Positions 1,934 through 27,822 of a DNA stretch of 31,153 nucleotides are shown piece by piece (within the stretch, counting starts at the first letter, position 1; every line of letters starts with the position of its first letter). The stretch comes from a virus (Duplodnaviria; Heunggongvirae; Uroviricota; Caudoviricetes): the IMG/VR virus record IMGVR_UViG_2671180603_000011, positions 1-31,153 of that record; one strand, given 5' to 3'. The notes beneath the pieces are model-generated. The model was not told the origin of the DNA. It did not search any database and saw only the letters and a program-made list of their open reading frames with translations. Both the position numbers and the translations under genes were made by a program.

Positions 1934-2914
1934 CTAACGTCCTGCTTTTAACAATAACCAGATAAACACCGGCGCACCCAACGTTGCGGTGACCACGCCA
2001 ATAGGCAGCTCTGCGGCAGCTAATGCCAGGCGCGCTACAATATCGGCCAGCAGCACTGCGCTCGCCCCTGCCAGCGCGCAGCCGGGAAGTAATACGCGAT
2101 GATCGGTTAAACCACACAACCGAAGAATATGTGGGATCACCAGACCAATAAAGCCGATAGCACCCGCCAGCGCCACACTGACGCCAACCATCCAGCCGGT
2201 CGCTGCCACCAGCACATTGCGCCAGAACCACAGGGGTAAACCCAGTTGCCGCGCCGAGATCTCGCCAAGTGCTAACATATTCATCGGCCTGGACTGACAA
2301 CAGATCCACAACAACACGGGGATCAATGCCAGCATCAGCCAGCTTTGCCGCCAGTCTACGCCGCCAAAACCGCCCATCATCCAGTACATCAGCTGACGTA
2401 AATCAACAGAGGTGGAAAAGTAGATAGCCCACGTCATTAGTGCGCTACAGATAATCCCTAATGCAACGCCAGCCAGCAATAACCGACTGGTCGAAAGATG
2501 ACGACGGGCGAAACGTAAGAGTATTAAAGTGATGATAAGCGCGCCAGCAATCGCACACAGCCCTAGCGCCCAGTTGGGGAGTTGCCCTTGCCCAAGCAAT
2601 ACCGCGGCGATAAGCCCCACGCCTGCGCCGTTAGAGACGCCAAGTAGTCCAGGTTCTGCCAGAGGATTTTCAAACAACGCCTGCATTACAGCGCCGGATA
2701 TAGCCAGCGCCGCACCAACCAGCAATACAGCCAGCGTACGTGGCAGGCGAATTTGCCAGACGAACAGTTCGCCACGAGGAGTAAACCAGTCACCTGGCGA
2801 AATCCATTGTTCACCGGCGCAAAGGCTTAAGAGAAGCGCCAGCAGCATCAAAACTGACAGGCATAATAACCAGCGAATATTTTGTCGCTGTTGTTGGCGG
2901 GCAAGTGTCAGCAT
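1934..2914 (-). CDS. btuC: Vitamin B12 ABC importer permease
   Basis: 326 aa, highly hydrophobic multi-span membrane protein of the FecCD/BtuC permease type; first gene of the btuCED cluster. Confidence 0.9.
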
Positions 2915-3106: not shown

Positions 3107-3688
3107 TCAGCCAACAAATTTAGCAACAAAATACGCGACCGCCGCCGTGAAAATGGTTGTGCACACTGGCACAATAATGCCACTCCAACGCCACTTCGTA
3201 TTATCATCAACCTTGTCAAACCGCCGATTCATCTCATCCATAATCTTGTCAAAGCGTTTATCCATCGCTTCGGTAAGCTCACCCTTCAGGCTGTTAATGT
3301 CTGATTTGAGCTGCTCTTTCAGGTTAGCTGTATCAGATTTAAGCTCACCTTTCAGATTCGCAATATCGCATTTAAGCTCACCTTTCAGATGAGCAATGTC
3401 TGCTTTGAGCTCACCCTTCACCTCACCAACATCGGCTTTGGTTGAGAGGTTTGTAGTGCGTTCAGCAAGCGTCGCAAGGTCGTTTCTTGTTAGCGATAAA
3501 TCACTTTCGAGTCGCTCAATTCGCCTTTCAAGTTTATCTGACATTCCACCTCCACTACTGCCGCCATCGCCGCCATCGCCGCCATCGCCGCCATCGCCGC
3601 CATGATAAAGCACATCACGCTCAGAATGCGACATACTACCTGCTGAATTACCGAAAAGGTTTCTTGCTACATTACCCATTTTCACCAT
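3107..3688 (-). CDS. Membrane-anchored coiled-coil protein with Gly/Asp tract and 11-residue repeats (XhlA/DUF1640-like architecture); function unknown
   Basis: 193 aa; (GDG)n tract; four tandem 11-aa heptad-like repeats (D-I-A-x-L-K-G-E-L-K-x); C-terminal hydrophobic anchor IIVPVCTTIFTAAVAYFVAKFVG. Start overlaps the upstream gene by 17 nt. Architecture assigned from sequence features only. Confidence 0.5.
   Translation of the reverse strand: MVKMGNVARNLFGNSAGSMSHSERDVLYHGGDGGDGGDGGDGGSSGGGMSDKLERRIERLESDLSLTRNDLATLAERTTNLSTKADVGEVKGELKADIAHLKGELKCDIANLKGELKSDTANLKEQLKSDINSLKGELTEAMDKRFDKIMDEMNRRFDKVDDNTKWRWSGIIVPVCTTIFTAAVAYFVAKFVG
3293..3427. repeat. About four imperfect tandem copies of a 33-bp unit inside the 3107..3688 coding sequence
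   Basis: Repeating core agctcacctttcag with periodic flanks (tcagatttaagctcacctttcagattcgcaata / tcgcatttaagctcacctttcagatgagcaatg ...); encodes the 11-aa protein repeats. Confidence 0.7.
3561..3603. repeat. Tandem 9-bp repeat (ccgccatcg, about 4.8 copies) inside the 3107..3688 coding sequence
   Basis: Perfect head-to-tail copies at 3561, 3570, 3579 and 3588 plus a partial copy; encodes the GDGGDGGDGGDGG tract; in-frame unit length. Confidence 0.85.
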
Positions 3689-4172
3689 CCTGTGCTTTGT
3701 CTTTCTCCAACCACTTCAGCACCGCAGACGTACGGTAAAGGCTCAGGTAACCACAATTCAGGCAATGCAGCGTGTAATAAGTTTTGCGCATATCAGGTAT
3801 GCTCTTAACATCACCCAAAAAAGTATAAGATACATAATGCTTTATGTTCTCTTTAATTAACTCACTCTGCTCCTCCAAGGGTAGATTGTTAAAATTTTCT
3901 GGTTTCTTATTTTTATCCCAGCAAAGATCCATACTTTCAGGCACAGATAATCGAGACGATCCACATGAAGGGCAGACACTGGAAACCCCCTTCTCAGACA
4001 AGAAACGGAAGAAGATTTCTGGCGTAATCTCCATCAGCCGCTCCTTATGTTTATTGACACGACTCATCGACTTCTTATTGATTTCATCAGCTTCTTCTTT
4101 GCATTTATCTTCTATATATTTCGATAGTAAATAGTCATATAACTCTTTTTTTGTAGGTTTTTTTATTTCCAT
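3672..4172 (-). CDS. Hypothetical Lys/Glu-rich protein with a four-Cys zinc-ribbon-like signature (CPSCG ... HCLNCG)
   Basis: 166 aa; markedly AT-rich compared with flanking genes; ATG is 3 nt downstream of the int stop, with a GGGAGGA Shine-Dalgarno lying inside the last int codons. Confidence 0.5.
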   Translation of the reverse strand: MEIKKPTKKELYDYLLSKYIEDKCKEEADEINKKSMSRVNKHKERLMEITPEIFFRFLSEKGVSSVCPSCGSSRLSVPESMDLCWDKNKKPENFNNLPLEEQSELIKENIKHYVSYTFLGDVKSIPDMRKTYYTLHCLNCGYLSLYRTSAVLKWLEKDKAQDGENG

Positions 4173-4174
4173 AG

Positions 4175-5152
4175 TTACATTCCTCCCAAGGGATTAAACC
4201 TCACCGCATCCTGCAGGTAATCCGGCGCAAGATGGGCATAAATCATCGTTGTCTGAATCTTTGCGTGCCCCAGAATTTTCTGGAGCGTCAGAATATTGCC
4301 GCCGTTCATCATGAAATGACTGGCGAAGGTGTGGCGCAGCGCATGAACAGCCTGGCCGTCAGGAACATCAGGTGCGACCGTTTTGATGACATCGCGAACC
4401 AATGGATAATCCAGCGTTGGAAACACTAGTTTCCCGCCCCGTTTTTTGATCTTTTCAAACAGATTTTCGGAGATCGGGACAGTGCGGTTTTTACTGTTCT
4501 TCGTTTTTGAAAAAGTGATTCGACAATGAAGAACACGGCGCTGCTCCAGTGCCGCTACCTCGCCCCATCGCGCCCCGGTCGACAGAAGGATTTCGACAGC
4601 CAGCCGTTCATCGGGATTTTCAGCCAGTGCATCCAGCAACTGAACACATTCAGACTTACTCAGGTATCCCATTTCGCGCTCGTTAACCTTCATTCCTTTA
4701 AGGCCTTGAACGGGGTTATCGTTAAGAAAATGGCCGGATGAGATGAGTGCGGTAAACATCGCGCTTAACGCCCCAATCTCTCGATTTATGGTGCTGGGCT
4801 GTATCCCCTGCTCTATCCTGGACACACGTAGCTCGGTGAACATCGTTGTATTAAGTTTATGCACGCACGGGTCATCCATTGCCTCACTCAAGCGCAGCAA
4901 TTTAAGGCGCGTGTTATGCCCTGACTTCATTAGCTGGCCGTGGTATTTCCACCACAAGTCAATAAGCACTGACAGAGGACGGCGATCAATGGAGTTTCCT
5001 TTCCACTCATTGTTATGCTGTTGCGCCAGCACCCACCGCTCATATAAAACTGCATCCGATTTCGTTTTAAATTTTTTGCGAATGCGTCTGCCCTTACGTC
5101 CCCCCGGGCGCATATCCAGCAGGTATCCTCCTGCAATTGATTTTATGCTCAT
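4175..5152 (-). CDS. int: Tyrosine recombinase, P2-type phage integrase
   Basis: Catalytic-domain motifs HALRHTFASHF (H-x-x-R) and LGHAKIQTTMIYAHL (Tyr nucleophile); N-terminal GRKGRRIRKKF arm-binding-like region resembles P2 Int as recalled. The ORF track extends to 5263; start placed at the MSIKSIAGG Met at 5152 so the gene no longer overlaps the repressor. Confidence 0.9.
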   Translation of the reverse strand: MSIKSIAGGYLLDMRPGGRKGRRIRKKFKTKSDAVLYERWVLAQQHNNEWKGNSIDRRPLSVLIDLWWKYHGQLMKSGHNTRLKLLRLSEAMDDPCVHKLNTTMFTELRVSRIEQGIQPSTINREIGALSAMFTALISSGHFLNDNPVQGLKGMKVNEREMGYLSKSECVQLLDALAENPDERLAVEILLSTGARWGEVAALEQRRVLHCRITFSKTKNSKNRTVPISENLFEKIKKRGGKLVFPTLDYPLVRDVIKTVAPDVPDGQAVHALRHTFASHFMMNGGNILTLQKILGHAKIQTTMIYAHLAPDYLQDAVRFNPLGGM

Positions 5153-5201
5153 TCGTGAAACCCCAGCGTTACAAGACCACCACGCCCCCAGCGTTCCATG
5201 A

Positions 5202-5513
5202 TTAGCCGGGCTGTGTGCCAGTCTTGCGGGGTCTTTGTGAACGAGATGTGACATCGTACCCATCAGGGGAGAGAGAGGGACTTATCTGTCCGGCCGCTTC
5301 GTTAGTTTCATCACTCATCAGCCAAGTCGTGTATTTTTTGAGTTGTGGATGCATCGTTACTTTGAGCAAAACTTCAGTCCCTACCCCCCTAATTCCTGTT
5401 TCGTACTGTTTGACCGTACCAACCGCAATACCTATTAAATCCGCAAACTTAGCCTGACTTAGCCCCTCAGATTCCCGAATTGCTTTTAATTTATTCGAAA
5501 TTTCCATTGACAT
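5202..5513 (-). CDS. Immunity repressor candidate, small XRE/Cro-C1-type HTH protein (P2 C / 186 cI position)
   Basis: HTH LSQAKFADLIGIAVGTVKQYETG; immediately upstream of int on the same strand; ATG at 5513 has AGGTG six nt upstream. The track ORF starts at a GTG at 5522. Confidence 0.7.
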   Translation of the reverse strand: MSMEISNKLKAIRESEGLSQAKFADLIGIAVGTVKQYETGIRGVGTEVLLKVTMHPQLKKYTTWLMSDETNEAAGQISPSLSPDGYDVTSRSQRPRKTGTQPG

Positions 5514-5536
5514 GGTGTGCACCTGACTACTATATT
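5507..5536 (+). promoter_or_regulatory. Near-consensus sigma70 promoter (TTGACA, 18-bp spacer, TATATT) reading rightward into the early operon
   Basis: TTGACA at 5507-5512 and TATATT at 5531-5536. The -35 overlaps the first codons of the leftward repressor gene, so the repressor promoter must lie to the right and the two transcripts converge. Confidence 0.55.
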
Positions 5537-5606
5537 GGTTATCAGTTGAGTACCACTTGACGCTAGAAAAGCCACAAATAGCACCAGATTTAACAGGTTA
5601 TCACAC

Positions 5607-5885
5607 ATGGCAGAAGTCCTGAACACACACGAACAAGCGGATTTGGAGCGTTTGGCGGCGTTCTATCCCTACCGCGATGAGCATGGATTACCAGTACTTG
5701 AAGAAAGCCTGAAAGATTACGCAAAGCGTACCAACCAAGCTTTTAACACCGTGAAAAGACAGGCTGACAGGGGTTCGATTCCCATCAACCAGGGTGAAAA
5801 GAACTCAAGACGCACAGTAAATCTCTTCGCTCTTTTCCTGAAAACCATCAGGAGCGCAGAGAAATACGTGCAGATGACAAAATAA
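5607..5885 (+). CDS. First early-operon protein (occupies the Cox/Apl position); function not established
   Basis: 92 aa ORF directly downstream of the rightward promoter and divergent from the repressor. Positional inference only. Confidence 0.35.
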   Translation: MAEVLNTHEQADLERLAAFYPYRDEHGLPVLEESLKDYAKRTNQAFNTVKRQADRGSIPINQGEKNSRRTVNLFALFLKTIRSAEKYVQMTK

Positions 5886-5899
5886 CGAGGTGTCATTTT

Positions 5900-6238
5900 A
5901 TGCTGAAGCAACGCCGTAATTTTCGCACCGAAACGGAACGCCAAGCTAACCGTTTCGCTACCAGCGCATCACGCAGCAACATCCGCTACAGCCTGAGCGA
6001 GACGCACGCAACGCCAGATGGCCATACAGTAAAACAAATTGGCGAGCATACCTGGATGATTGAGAAAGCTGGAATAGTGGTCCACAAATACCCGCGCAAT
6101 CCGTTTACCGGAAACCGCATTTTTGCTCTGAGCTGCGGCGACAATCAGTTCGGGCAGGATTTCACGTTGTACGAAGCGCTACGCACAGTTGATCGCCTTC
6201 TTTACGGAGAAAATTTTATTAAACAGGCTGAGTTATAA
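5900..6238 (+). CDS. Hypothetical early protein
   Basis: 112 aa ORF in the co-directional early gene string. Confidence 0.4.
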   Translation: MLKQRRNFRTETERQANRFATSASRSNIRYSLSETHATPDGHTVKQIGEHTWMIEKAGIVVHKYPRNPFTGNRIFALSCGDNQFGQDFTLYEALRTVDRLLYGENFIKQAEL

Positions 6239-6279
6239 CAGCGGGTTTATCACCGGTTATTTTTAACGAGGACTCCGTT

Positions 6280-6522
6280 ATGAGAAAACACACAGCAGAA
6301 CAGGTAAACGAATTTCTGCAGGGATATTACTTCGATAACGAAATTAATCCCCGCGCCAGAAAAACACACTTCGAAGTAATGAAGTGCGGAATATTCAGCG
6401 TCCGCAACACCCTGTTTTGTTCAAAAGATACGGGAGCCAGCGAGGACCTTAAAGAACTTAACCGGATGGCGAAACAATTAACGGATGGCATGGTTCCCGA
6501 ACCCGCAATAATTACGGAGTAA
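6280..6522 (+). CDS. Hypothetical early protein
   Basis: 80 aa ORF in the early gene string. Confidence 0.4.
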   Translation: MRKHTAEQVNEFLQGYYFDNEINPRARKTHFEVMKCGIFSVRNTLFCSKDTGASEDLKELNRMAKQLTDGMVPEPAIITE

Positions 6523-8005: not shown

Positions 8006-8241
8006 AACCCGCCATTATCTGCATTCTGTGCGAGAGCACTGTCACCGGCGACCATTACCGCATCAGGGAACGCCACATCAACCCTGACCGTTCGCTGCTG
8101 GACAACATCACCGGCCCGGATGATGAACGCGTGATCTGCCTGAACGACGGCTCGCAGTTACGCGTGCGCAATATCCGGCGCGAAATCACGCTCGAACCCA
8201 CCCCATTCACACGCGGGAAAAAACCGGAGAGTGACGCATGA
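8002..8241 (+). CDS. Hypothetical small protein with a CxxC pair
   Basis: 79 aa; start overlaps the upstream stop and its stop overlaps the methyltransferase start. Confidence 0.35.
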   Translation: MKPAIICILCESTVTGDHYRIRERHINPDRSLLDNITGPDDERVICLNDGSQLRVRNIRREITLEPTPFTRGKKPESDA

Positions 8242-9197
8242 AAGGTATTCTGAACCAGCGCTCACCGCTCAAATGGGCGGGCGGCAAATTCAGTATCATG
8301 CCGCAGCTGCGCGAATATTTACCCAAAGCCGCCTGCCTGATCGAACCCTTCGTGGGCGGCGGCTCGGTCTTCATGAACACGGATTATGACTATTACGTAT
8401 TGTGTGACAGCAACCCCACGCTGATTAATTTCTACCAGCAACTGACGACCAACACCACGGAATTAATGGATCGTGCATGGTCGCTCTTTAAGGATGGCGG
8501 CACACCGGAAGCCTACAAACGCCATCGCGGGGCATTTAACACCATCGCGCTGGCCACCGACAGATTACGCGGCGAATCCCTGGAATGGGCAGCGCTGTTT
8601 CTGTACCTGAACCGCCATTGCTTTAACGGCCTGTACCGCACCAACCAAAAAGGCGAATTCAATGTGCCATTCGGCAAACACCGCATGCCTTATTTCCCCT
8701 GCCAGGAAATGCGCCTGTTTGCTGATAAAGCCAACGAGACCCGGACCCGCTTTATTCACGCGGATTTCCGTACAGCCTTCACAATGCCGGCTGAGATCCG
8801 CCGTTTTTCTTCGGTGCACGGCGATATCGCCATTTACTGCGATCCGCCCTACCTGCCACCGGACGGTAAAGAGGCGTTCACTCACTACAACGGCCGGGCA
8901 TTTACCCGCAAAGACCACCGTGACCTTGCGGCGCTCATGATGAACGCCTGGCAGCGTTACGGTATCCACCCGGTGGTCTCCAACAGTGACACCTCCGAAA
9001 CCCGGCAGATCTATTCCTCGTTTGAGCTGCACACCCTGAGCGTTCGCCGCGCTGTGGCTGCCAGCAGCAGTGCACGCCAGCAGGCAAAAGAGGTGATTGG
9101 TGTTTATCCGCCAGCCCGTGAGGTCCGGATCCGGGATGTCAATGCGGGCTGGCTGTCTCACATTCCCGCTCCACACCCCACCACGGAGATCATGTAA
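8238..9197 (+). CDS. DNA N6-adenine methyltransferase, Dam/D12 class
   Basis: AdoMet-binding motif EPFVGGGSV near the N-terminus and catalytic DPPY (IYCDPPYLP, DNA 8840-8851); has a roughly 60-aa C-terminal extension. Target sequence cannot be read from the protein. Confidence 0.85.
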   Translation: MKGILNQRSPLKWAGGKFSIMPQLREYLPKAACLIEPFVGGGSVFMNTDYDYYVLCDSNPTLINFYQQLTTNTTELMDRAWSLFKDGGTPEAYKRHRGAFNTIALATDRLRGESLEWAALFLYLNRHCFNGLYRTNQKGEFNVPFGKHRMPYFPCQEMRLFADKANETRTRFIHADFRTAFTMPAEIRRFSSVHGDIAIYCDPPYLPPDGKEAFTHYNGRAFTRKDHRDLAALMMNAWQRYGIHPVVSNSDTSETRQIYSSFELHTLSVRRAVAASSSARQQAKEVIGVYPPAREVRIRDVNAGWLSHIPAPHPTTEIM

Positions 9198-25741: not shown

Positions 25742-27822
25742 TGGCTGCTGAACTTGATTTTACGCTAAGTCTGGTTGATAAGCTGACGAGACCCTTAAAA
25801 CAGGCGCAATCGGCTGTGACCGGATTTGCTGACAAGGCAACAGCCGACTTTAAACGTCTCGGTTTTGGTGTGGCCGGGTTATGGGGGGCTGCTCAGGGAA
25901 TAAAAGGACTGGTCAACCCCGCCCGCGACATGGAAGCCGCGCTGGCCGAAGTCAGCTCGCTGGATGTGGCAAATAAAACACTCGATCAGCTGCGTAAAAC
26001 TTCACAGACGTTTGCCATTAACTACGGCGAAAGCGCCAGCAATTTCGTCCGCAGCGCCTACGATATCCAGTCCGCCATCGCAGGACTTCAGGGTGACGAA
26101 CTGCCAAAATTTACTGAAGCATCCGCCATTCTCGCCAAAGCCACCAAATCAGACACGGCCACCATTACTAACTATATGGGCACCATGTACGGTGTTTTTA
26201 AAAATACCGCAGAGAAGATGGGGCGCACGCAGTGGGTTGAACAAATTGCCGGGCAGACCGCAACCGCCGTTCAGGTGTTCAAAACTACCGGTAATGAAAT
26301 GTCTGCTGCCTTTACTGCGCTGGGTGCCAACGCGCAGGCAATGAAGGTATCTGCCGCTGAACAGTTCGCCGTACTGGGACAGCTCCAGTCCACCATGTCA
26401 GGCAGCGAGGCGGGAACCAAATATAAATCATTCCTGGCGGGGATTGGGAATGCGCAAAAAGTGCTGGGGCTGAACTTTACCAACCGGGACGGCAGTGCCA
26501 GAAGCATTACCGGTATCATCGACCTGATTAAAGGAAAGTTTGGCGATCTGTCAAAAGTGGCAGATGCAGACCTGCTGAAAAAAGCCTTTGGCAGCGATGA
26601 AGCGGTGTCCATGATTAAACTACTGGCCGGAGATGTTGACGGGCTGAAACGGAACATCAATACATTAGGTAACATCAAAGGCATGGATAAAGCCATCGAA
26701 ATGGCGAAAAAGATGGTTGACCCGTGGGATCAGGTTAATTCTTTACTGGAGCAGGTTCGCGTCAGCATTGGTCTGCGGCTCGATCCCGTCTTTGCCCCGT
26801 TCCTGCAAAAAATCATCACCGGCGGGAAAGCCTTCATGAAATGGCTGGATACGTTCCCCAATATTGCCCGCTGGCTGGGATATATCACTGCAATGACCCT
26901 CGCCTTTGCCGCAGCAGGGGCGCTTGCCAGTATCACGATGGGGGCCTTCGGCTTTATCATGACCGGGCTCAGCGGAATTGCTGGCGTGCTGAAAGGCGCA
27001 TGGAAAGGACTAATCTTCACCCTGGATTTATTACGCCCCTCCCTGCTTTCAACCCGTCTTGGCCTGATGGGGCTATGGATTCAGGAAAAAGCCGTCTGGG
27101 TGTGGTCAAAACTGGTCGCTCTTTGGGCAGGGATCTGTAAAGCGGCGATCGTAGCCTGGAACGTAGTGTTACGTGCGGGCGCGGTTGCAATGCGCCTGTG
27201 GGGTGTGGCGACGGCATTCGCAGGCGGTGCGCTGCAACTCCTGATAAGCCCCATAACCCTGATTATTCTCGCCATTGCCGCACTTGCCGTAGGGATCTGT
27301 CTGGCTATCAAATACTGGGACAATATTAAAGCCGCCATCATGGACACGGAAGCTTTCTGTGCCCTGCTAAAAGTCATTAACGCTGTGGTGGGCTGGTTTG
27401 ATGATGCATGGAACAGCATTAAAGCCGGATGGGACAATCTGACGAACTGGTTTAAAAATTTTTCGCTGGCCGACACGTTCGGCAATATCACGGCTGGAAT
27501 TGGCAAGCTCTTTGACGGCATATGGGATTCCATTAAGAGCTCCTTTACCGGGACATGGAACTGGATAGCAGAGAAGCTCAACAAAATCCCCGGTGTCAAT
27601 ATCAGCACCGCACAACAGACCGTCGCACCGACACCCGCCCCGGAGCTTATCACTGGCAACCGTAGCGCCGCCATCCAGGGTGGGCCGGTAAGTCACCAGA
27701 TAAGCAACAACCGGGGCGACAAAGTCACCAATAACAACGTTAAGCAGGATATCACACTGCACGTTGACACCCTGGCGACACCGGGACAACTGGCGGAATA
27801 CAGCGAACTGGCAGCGGGGTGA
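25741..27822 (+). CDS. Tail tape measure protein
   Basis: 693 aa; Ala/Gly-rich helical N-terminal half and hydrophobic segments in the C-terminal half; directly downstream of the frameshifted chaperone pair. Confidence 0.8.
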   Translation: MAAELDFTLSLVDKLTRPLKQAQSAVTGFADKATADFKRLGFGVAGLWGAAQGIKGLVNPARDMEAALAEVSSLDVANKTLDQLRKTSQTFAINYGESASNFVRSAYDIQSAIAGLQGDELPKFTEASAILAKATKSDTATITNYMGTMYGVFKNTAEKMGRTQWVEQIAGQTATAVQVFKTTGNEMSAAFTALGANAQAMKVSAAEQFAVLGQLQSTMSGSEAGTKYKSFLAGIGNAQKVLGLNFTNRDGSARSITGIIDLIKGKFGDLSKVADADLLKKAFGSDEAVSMIKLLAGDVDGLKRNINTLGNIKGMDKAIEMAKKMVDPWDQVNSLLEQVRVSIGLRLDPVFAPFLQKIITGGKAFMKWLDTFPNIARWLGYITAMTLAFAAAGALASITMGAFGFIMTGLSGIAGVLKGAWKGLIFTLDLLRPSLLSTRLGLMGLWIQEKAVWVWSKLVALWAGICKAAIVAWNVVLRAGAVAMRLWGVATAFAGGALQLLISPITLIILAIAALAVGICLAIKYWDNIKAAIMDTEAFCALLKVINAVVGWFDDAWNSIKAGWDNLTNWFKNFSLADTFGNITAGIGKLFDGIWDSIKSSFTGTWNWIAEKLNKIPGVNISTAQQTVAPTPAPELITGNRSAAIQGGPVSHQISNNRGDKVTNNNVKQDITLHVDTLATPGQLAEYSELAAG

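Follow-up and report, generated by a model that had tools for sequence, protein, structure and literature searches.

The window, meaning here the whole stretch of 31,153 nt that was analysed, carries a repressor gene and an integrase gene in a single leftward operon, facing an early operon headed by a cox-like gene. The int-C gene order is that of P2. The genes at this locus are:

4175-5152, minus strand: tyrosine integrase gene (Pfam Int_N and Phage_integrase), following the repressor gene in the leftward, lysogenic operon, with the start as in the RefSeq-annotated homolog
5202-5513, minus strand: immunity repressor gene, 103 aa, P2 C family (PDB match, HTH_3, phrog_147)
5607-5885, plus strand: first early gene, 92 aa, Cox/Apl-like helix-turn-helix protein (phrog_575, P2 Cox by profile and hhalign)

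The repressor aligns with P2 C (PDB 2l49/2xcj), residues 1-99 on 1-99 (phmmer against the PDB, E 1.9e-16), has a single HTH_3 domain and matches phrog_147 with E 2.9e-31. The 92-aa protein matches phrog_575, 'Cox-like excisionase and repressor' (E 5.9e-7). A direct sequence search of the PDB with this protein gave no match; its family profile has P2 Cox (4lhf) as the top PDB match (E 0.014), and hhalign places it on P2 Cox with 86% probability over the helix-turn-helix. Judged from these matches, its likeness to Cox is weak but consistent.

Directly after the cox-like gene lies a DUF4761 gene (phrog_2492; 5900-6238, plus strand) that is kept in P88-like phages, and to the right of it are genes for a Dam-type methylase, a gpA replication protein, portal, terminase, scaffold and P2-family capsid proteins. 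The methylase, a D12-class N6-adenine DNA methyltransferase (Dam-like), is encoded within the early operon at 8238-9197 (plus strand). Two cargo-like genes on the minus strand lie beside the integrase gene. The product of one (3107-3688) has 193 aa; in it a GGDGGDGGDGGDGG stretch precedes repeated LKGELK.DIA.LKGELK coiled-coil units, a hydrophobic segment lies at the C-terminus, and the protein gives weak CCDC90-like/DUF1640 matches. The product of the other (3672-4172) is a 166-aa protein with CxxC pairs and without a family match. A FecCD-family permease gene (1934-2914, minus strand), to the left of the prophage, probably belongs to the host. No part of the 31-kb window gave a tRNA gene, and the attachment site is accordingly not located at a tRNA inside it. 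An Rfam search of 5100-6300 gave no match, and the predicted early leader has no unusual RNA structure (z 0.25).

The early operon is preceded by a promoter with the following hexamers:

5507-5512, plus strand: -35 hexamer TTGACA, on repressor codons 1-3, inside TTGACATGGTG
5531-5536, plus strand: -10 hexamer TATATT, with a predicted start near 5543-5544

The earlier note had described a near-consensus rightward promoter with its -35 on the first codons of the leftward 103-aa repressor gene, and both statements are borne out. The TTGACA-18 nt-TATATT sequence matches 11/12 consensus positions. The 31-kb window has just two sites of this quality, and when the 301 nt around the promoter are shuffled, one arises in only 0.7% of cases. 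The other 11/12 sigma-70 match in the window is TTGACA-16-TTTAAT at 26554 (minus strand). The leftward repressor reading frame opens with ATG at 5513-5511, which is also the start that RefSeq gives for the E. coli homolog and aligns residue 1 with residue 1 of P2 C; the -35 hexamer therefore falls on codons 1-3. The hexamer is invariant in all immunity types, and the string TTGACATGGTG around it also surrounds the annotated Pe -35 of P2, without any difference. Overlap of the Pe -35 with the C start codon is the geometry of the annotated P2 and WPhi promoters, and CAGGTG on the minus strand (5524-5519) reads as a plausible Shine-Dalgarno sequence of the repressor gene. By its sequence, the rightward promoter is the homolog of P2 and WPhi Pe. 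It would drive the cox-like gene and the early operon, with its -35 overlapping the start of the leftward repressor-integrase operon.

Two exact copies of the 8-mer GGTTATCA, noted earlier as a direct repeat, are indeed present, 59 nt apart from start to start:

5537-5544, plus strand: GGTTATCA copy 1, within the 5' part of putative operator unit 2; GGT, A5541 and CA are conserved, 5540 and 5542 vary
5596-5603, plus strand: GGTTATCA copy 2, where the cox-like gene has its ribosome-binding region; read on the opposite strand it gives TGATAACC(T), a candidate extended -10 for a leftward promoter

The 31-kb window has 3 copies of GGTTATCA against 0.76 expected, a number reached in 5/100 shuffles. 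The same 351 nt contain four further exact repeats of at least 8 nt, and comparable repeat statistics arise in intergenic shuffles in 270/500 cases with up to 1 mismatch and in 81/500 with up to 2. The GGTTATCA repeat by itself is not beyond chance, and none of the short repeats within the window alone is statistically significant in shuffle tests. Readings of GGTTATCA as a DnaA box, an IHF site or a Fur-like site were dropped as poor matches by eye.

Repressors of the C family bind direct repeats 22, 26 or 34 bp apart, which flank a Pe hexamer (PMC1904268, PMC2995052). Conservation around Pe was read from an alignment of 11 distinct upstream regions of repressors that have the recognition helix G[T/M][V/I]KQYETG and are 66-99% identical overall. 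The repressor genes of these relatives are 67-93% identical in DNA and 41-84% at third codon positions, and their cox-like proteins share 32-96% identity with that of the window. Columns 5507-5516, 5519-5526, 5528-5532, 5535-5539, 5541, 5543-5544 and 5548-5554 are invariant in the 11 sequences. To the right of 5554 the sequences are unrelated, with no conservation. The block 5507-5554 travels with the recognition helix of the repressor and not with the cox-like gene. Within the block, 11/12 pairs of invariant columns at an offset of 23 have the same base (8/17 at the next best offset), and none of 5000 permutations reaches 11. Two putative operator units emerge:

5513-5530, no strand assigned: unit 1 (O1), TGGTGTGCACCTGACTAC (TGGTgtGCACCTGAcTAC), in the Pe spacer, defined by invariant columns and the match to unit 2 at offset 23
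5536-5553, no strand assigned: unit 2 (O2), TGGTTATCAGTTGAGTAC (TGGTtAtCAgttGAGTAC), over the predicted Pe start

The consensus of the two units is TGGTnnnCAnnnGAnTAC, 18 bp long, and the units stand 23 bp apart from centre to centre, on either side of the -10. The segment 5537-5554 forms a quasi-palindrome (12/18); about 1% of random 18-mers are as self-complementary. Comparative sequence thus places at Pe two direct repeats flanking the -10 hexamer at a distance within the 22-34 bp of the family. The repressor most likely binds these two 18-bp repeats, not the two GGTTATCA copies, and the 103-aa protein would shut Pe by occupying two direct copies of TGGTnnnCAnnnGAnTAC that bracket the -10, one of them over the predicted start. 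The reading given a probability of about 70% is that a P2-like prophage (P88-like, Peduoviridae) has its lysis-lysogeny (immunity) switch here, built after the P2 C/Cox plan with two 18-bp operator units at Pe, and that copy 2 of GGTTATCA is no repressor-specific site. In short, the locus is one more P2-type immunity switch of the ordinary kind, with a specificity not characterised before.

The switch is like that of P2 in having a homologous C repressor of ~100 aa, int and C in leftward orientation, a cox-like gene first in the rightward operon and the Pe -35 TTGACA on the C start within TTGACATGGTG. In the P2 record, 8-bp half-sites defined by experiment (GTTTAGAT, twice) lie 22 bp apart and flank the -10, whereas the 23-bp distance in the window is deduced from the alignment. 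The P2 C footprint covers O1, the spacer, O2 and about 12 nt further (PMC1904263), and the arrangement of the 18-bp units fits both this footprint and the 22-bp design of P2. The two switches differ in that the repressors are only 38% identical, the half-site GTTTAGAT is unrelated to TGGTnnnCAnnnGAnTAC, the P2 unit has 8 bp and the window unit 18 bp, with unit 2 quasi-palindromic, and the intergenic region of the window is about 21 bp shorter. The cox-like protein of the window is remotely similar to P2 Cox. P2 also has in its record a convergent Pc further right, with -10 TATAAT and -35 ATGAAT; in the window no Pc of the TATAAT type is visible.

The closest characterised repressor is that of WPhi, which is 47% identical and has the recognition helix GTVKNYESG where the window has GTVKQYETG. 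WPhi Pe reads TTGACA-17-TATATT, with the same overlap of the -35 and the C start and with half-sites flanking the -10. These half-sites (TATTGGTGAC) are 34 bp apart, and the position in the window equivalent to the second one is not conserved among relatives. The Pc of WPhi abuts the cox start and its promoters are further apart, giving a transcript overlap of 82 nt, compared with about 35 nt in P2 (PMC1904263).

The likeness to phage 186 is one of layout. The CI repressor of 186 is larger, has two domains and binds to inverted repeats. The repressor of the window, with 103 aa and a single HTH_3 domain, is P2 C-like and not of this type. 186 CI is said to differ in origin from P2 C (PMC3448106), whereas the window repressor is P2 C-type over its full length. 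What the window would share with 186 is a layout in which early and lysogenic promoters face each other; both also have a first early gene of Apl/Cox type (PMC3448106), with another small gene next to it. After apl 186 has cII, and the window has DUF4761 at that position.

Another reading takes both exact GGTTATCA copies as half-sites of the repressor's operator, the first at the Pe start and the second before the first early gene; the earlier note had proposed them as candidate operators. The copies are exact, 2/3 of the occurrences in the window fall within 67 bp, and repressors of this family bind direct repeats (PMC2995052). The conserved block includes copy 1. The helix GTVKQYETG is near the GTVKNYESG of WPhi C, and the WPhi half-site TATTGGTGAC resembles TATTGGTTAT at 5533-5542, which is, in a side-by-side reading, the best WPhi-like half-site in the window (7/10) and overlaps copy 1. 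Against this reading, the heteroimmune types S and T keep copy 2 and the sequence around it (AGGTTATCACA..ATG) without change; the N-domains of their repressors are 57-61% identical, with different recognition helices. Conversely, Salmonella relatives with a repressor DNA-binding domain identical to that of the window have GGTTAACA at copy 2, and W-like relatives with the same or nearly the same helix have GGTTAACA, GGGTATCA, GGATATCA, GGATAACA or GGATACCA there. Being kept in heteroimmune types and altered in relatives with the same repressor, copy 2 tracks the lineage of the cox flank and not the repressor. Copy 1 reads GGTTAGCA, GGTAAGCA or GGTTAACA in relatives, which vary at positions 5540 and 5542; the two copies change at different positions and do not co-vary. 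The repeat partner of copy 1 is the sequence 23 bp upstream, at 5513-5530, and not that at 5596, and the 59 bp between the GGTTATCA copies is outside the 22-34 bp, centre to centre, of the characterised members (PMC1904268). What stands of the proposal is copy 1, as part of a conserved operator block; that GGTTATCA forms a pair of half-sites is quite improbable.

It could also be that the block 5507-5554 consists of nothing other than promoter elements, translation signals of the repressor gene and the early leader, the operator being elsewhere or too degenerate. TTGACATGGT, a part of the block, is common to other immunity types as well; CACCTG in the block is the complement of the plausible repressor-gene Shine-Dalgarno (CAGGTG), and TATATT is the -10. 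It is possible that these three elements are conserved for reasons other than repressor binding, and no repeat within the window is significant alone. This account is nevertheless highly doubtful for the block as a whole, which follows the recognition helix and not the cox-like gene. The GAGTACC at +5 to +11 of Pe is invariant though it has no known promoter role, and 11/12 identity at a single offset is not expected from unrelated constraints.

A WPhi-like operator of half-sites CACCTGAC (5520-5527) and CACTTGAC (5554-5561), which is the best direct repeat in an unbiased scan of the window at offsets of 18-40 and shares the 34-bp offset, the experimentally defined position and matching TGAC ends with the two TATTGGTGAC copies of WPhi, and the offset and position with type S, is very improbable and was ruled out, since the second copy reads AAATGCAA, AAAAGCAC, TAAAACTG or AATAAAAC in relatives with the same helix, is unconserved in more distant W-like relatives, and the repeat is not significant alone (p about 0.14).

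Beside the two 18-bp units favoured here, a third sequence, GCACCAGA (5581-5588), resembles the O1 core GCACCTGA (5519-5526); types S and T have ACCACAGA in its place. As a third site of the immunity type of the window it was rejected, because W-like relatives with other cox flanks lack it; it is probably lineage-specific.

Converging promoters are found in both P2- and 186-type switches (PMC3448106). From the position of Pe, any dedicated repressor promoter of the window must lie to the right of 5525, beyond the Shine-Dalgarno sequence of the repressor gene. The face-to-face layout put forward in the earlier note is supported by homology to the P2 and WPhi records, the resemblance to 186 being limited to the layout; the leftward promoter itself is not confidently located. 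A simple promoter scan found no minus-strand site, and scoring with a matrix gave one weak candidate for the Pc homolog:

5595-5623, minus strand: TTCAGG (5623-5618), 17 nt, TG-A-TAACCT (5603-5595)

The TTCAGG-17-TGaTAACCT sequence has the top minus-strand score both in the window and in type S (L002), and it is present in all types. It scores 7.3, compared with 6.0 for the real P2 Pc. The score is suggestive only, as the candidate is weak and its sequence, being the start of the cox-like gene, is conserved in any case. If TGATAACCT is taken as the Pc -10, a start is predicted near 5588, and the variant GGTTAACA of copy 2 alters only the 'n' of TGn in the extended -10. AGG at 5595-5597, 9 nt before the cox-like ATG, fits a Shine-Dalgarno sequence. 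Copy 2 would belong to a segment that moves with the cox-like gene, supplying its Shine-Dalgarno region and maybe the extended -10 of Pc. A wider proposal, that copy 2 is an extra single-arm repressor site on the -10 of the convergent repressor promoter, that the Pe repressor also throttles its own promoter, possibly through a 59-bp loop, and that the direct repeats of this clade are direct repeats of quasi-palindromes, is unlikely. Short repeats of the CACA type (CCACAAAT, CACCAGAT, TCACACAT) are seen by eye at 5572-5606, in a segment conserved across immunity types, and are possible sites of the cox-like protein.

Related prophages fall into several immunity types with a common cox-like gene (78-96% identical) and differing repressor N-terminal domains. 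In place of copy 1, type S has TATAAGTACAC twice, 34 bp apart, and type T has AGACGACT twice, 32 bp apart. Type X has TGGTTCA.. twice at 32 bp and type Y has GGCAATyGCC twice at 31 bp. All these repeats, spaced 31-34 bp, flank the -10 and are significant against shuffles. The type S unit is itself a perfect 20-bp palindrome, GGTGTACTTATAAGTACACC (L002, 1899-1918), and the type Y unit, found upstream of the repressor in a metagenome contig (L193), is palindromic as well (GGCAATTGCC). If the direct repeats were repeated quasi-palindromes, as in S, Y and O2 (12/18), this would explain how a symmetric C dimer sits on a 'non-palindromic' operator.

The cox-like protein of the window is 96% identical to that of the heteroimmune type-S prophage and 78% to that of a same-immunity E. 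coli prophage, and the C-terminal tail of the repressor (TNEAAGQISPSLSPDG...KTGTQPG) is common to all types. These mosaic identities and the common tail place exchange points close to codon 68 of the repressor gene and in the stretch from 5554 to the cox-like start. The switch module, comprising the repressor N-terminal domain and the operator block (~5300-5554), is swapped independently of the cox-like gene. P88 and other Xuanwuvirus members are like the window in their downstream early genes, which are 86-88% identical in DNA from DUF4761 onward and stand in the same order, but differ from it in the switch: the P88 repressor is 34% identical and the cox gene is unrelated in sequence. The contrast between similar early genes and dissimilar repressor and cox genes indicates that the switch module was exchanged.

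The literature search turned up no paper on the P88-like switch. The locus adds one immunity specificity to the well-studied P2 C/Cox family, with a testable operator prediction of two TGGTnnnCAnnnGAnTAC copies 23 bp apart. Its value lies in annotation and in comparative operator design, and current understanding is not challenged. Among sequenced phage isolates in the collection searched, none has the repressor of the window, the best match being 63% identical. Salmonella enterica is the source of almost all of the closest repressor homologs, one of which occurs on at least 1000 contigs. Of 5426 complete E. coli genomes, about 30 carry the immunity type. A scan of genome contigs with the cox-like protein gave 2 loci only, and the scan of metagenome contigs returned mostly the E. 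coli copies again.
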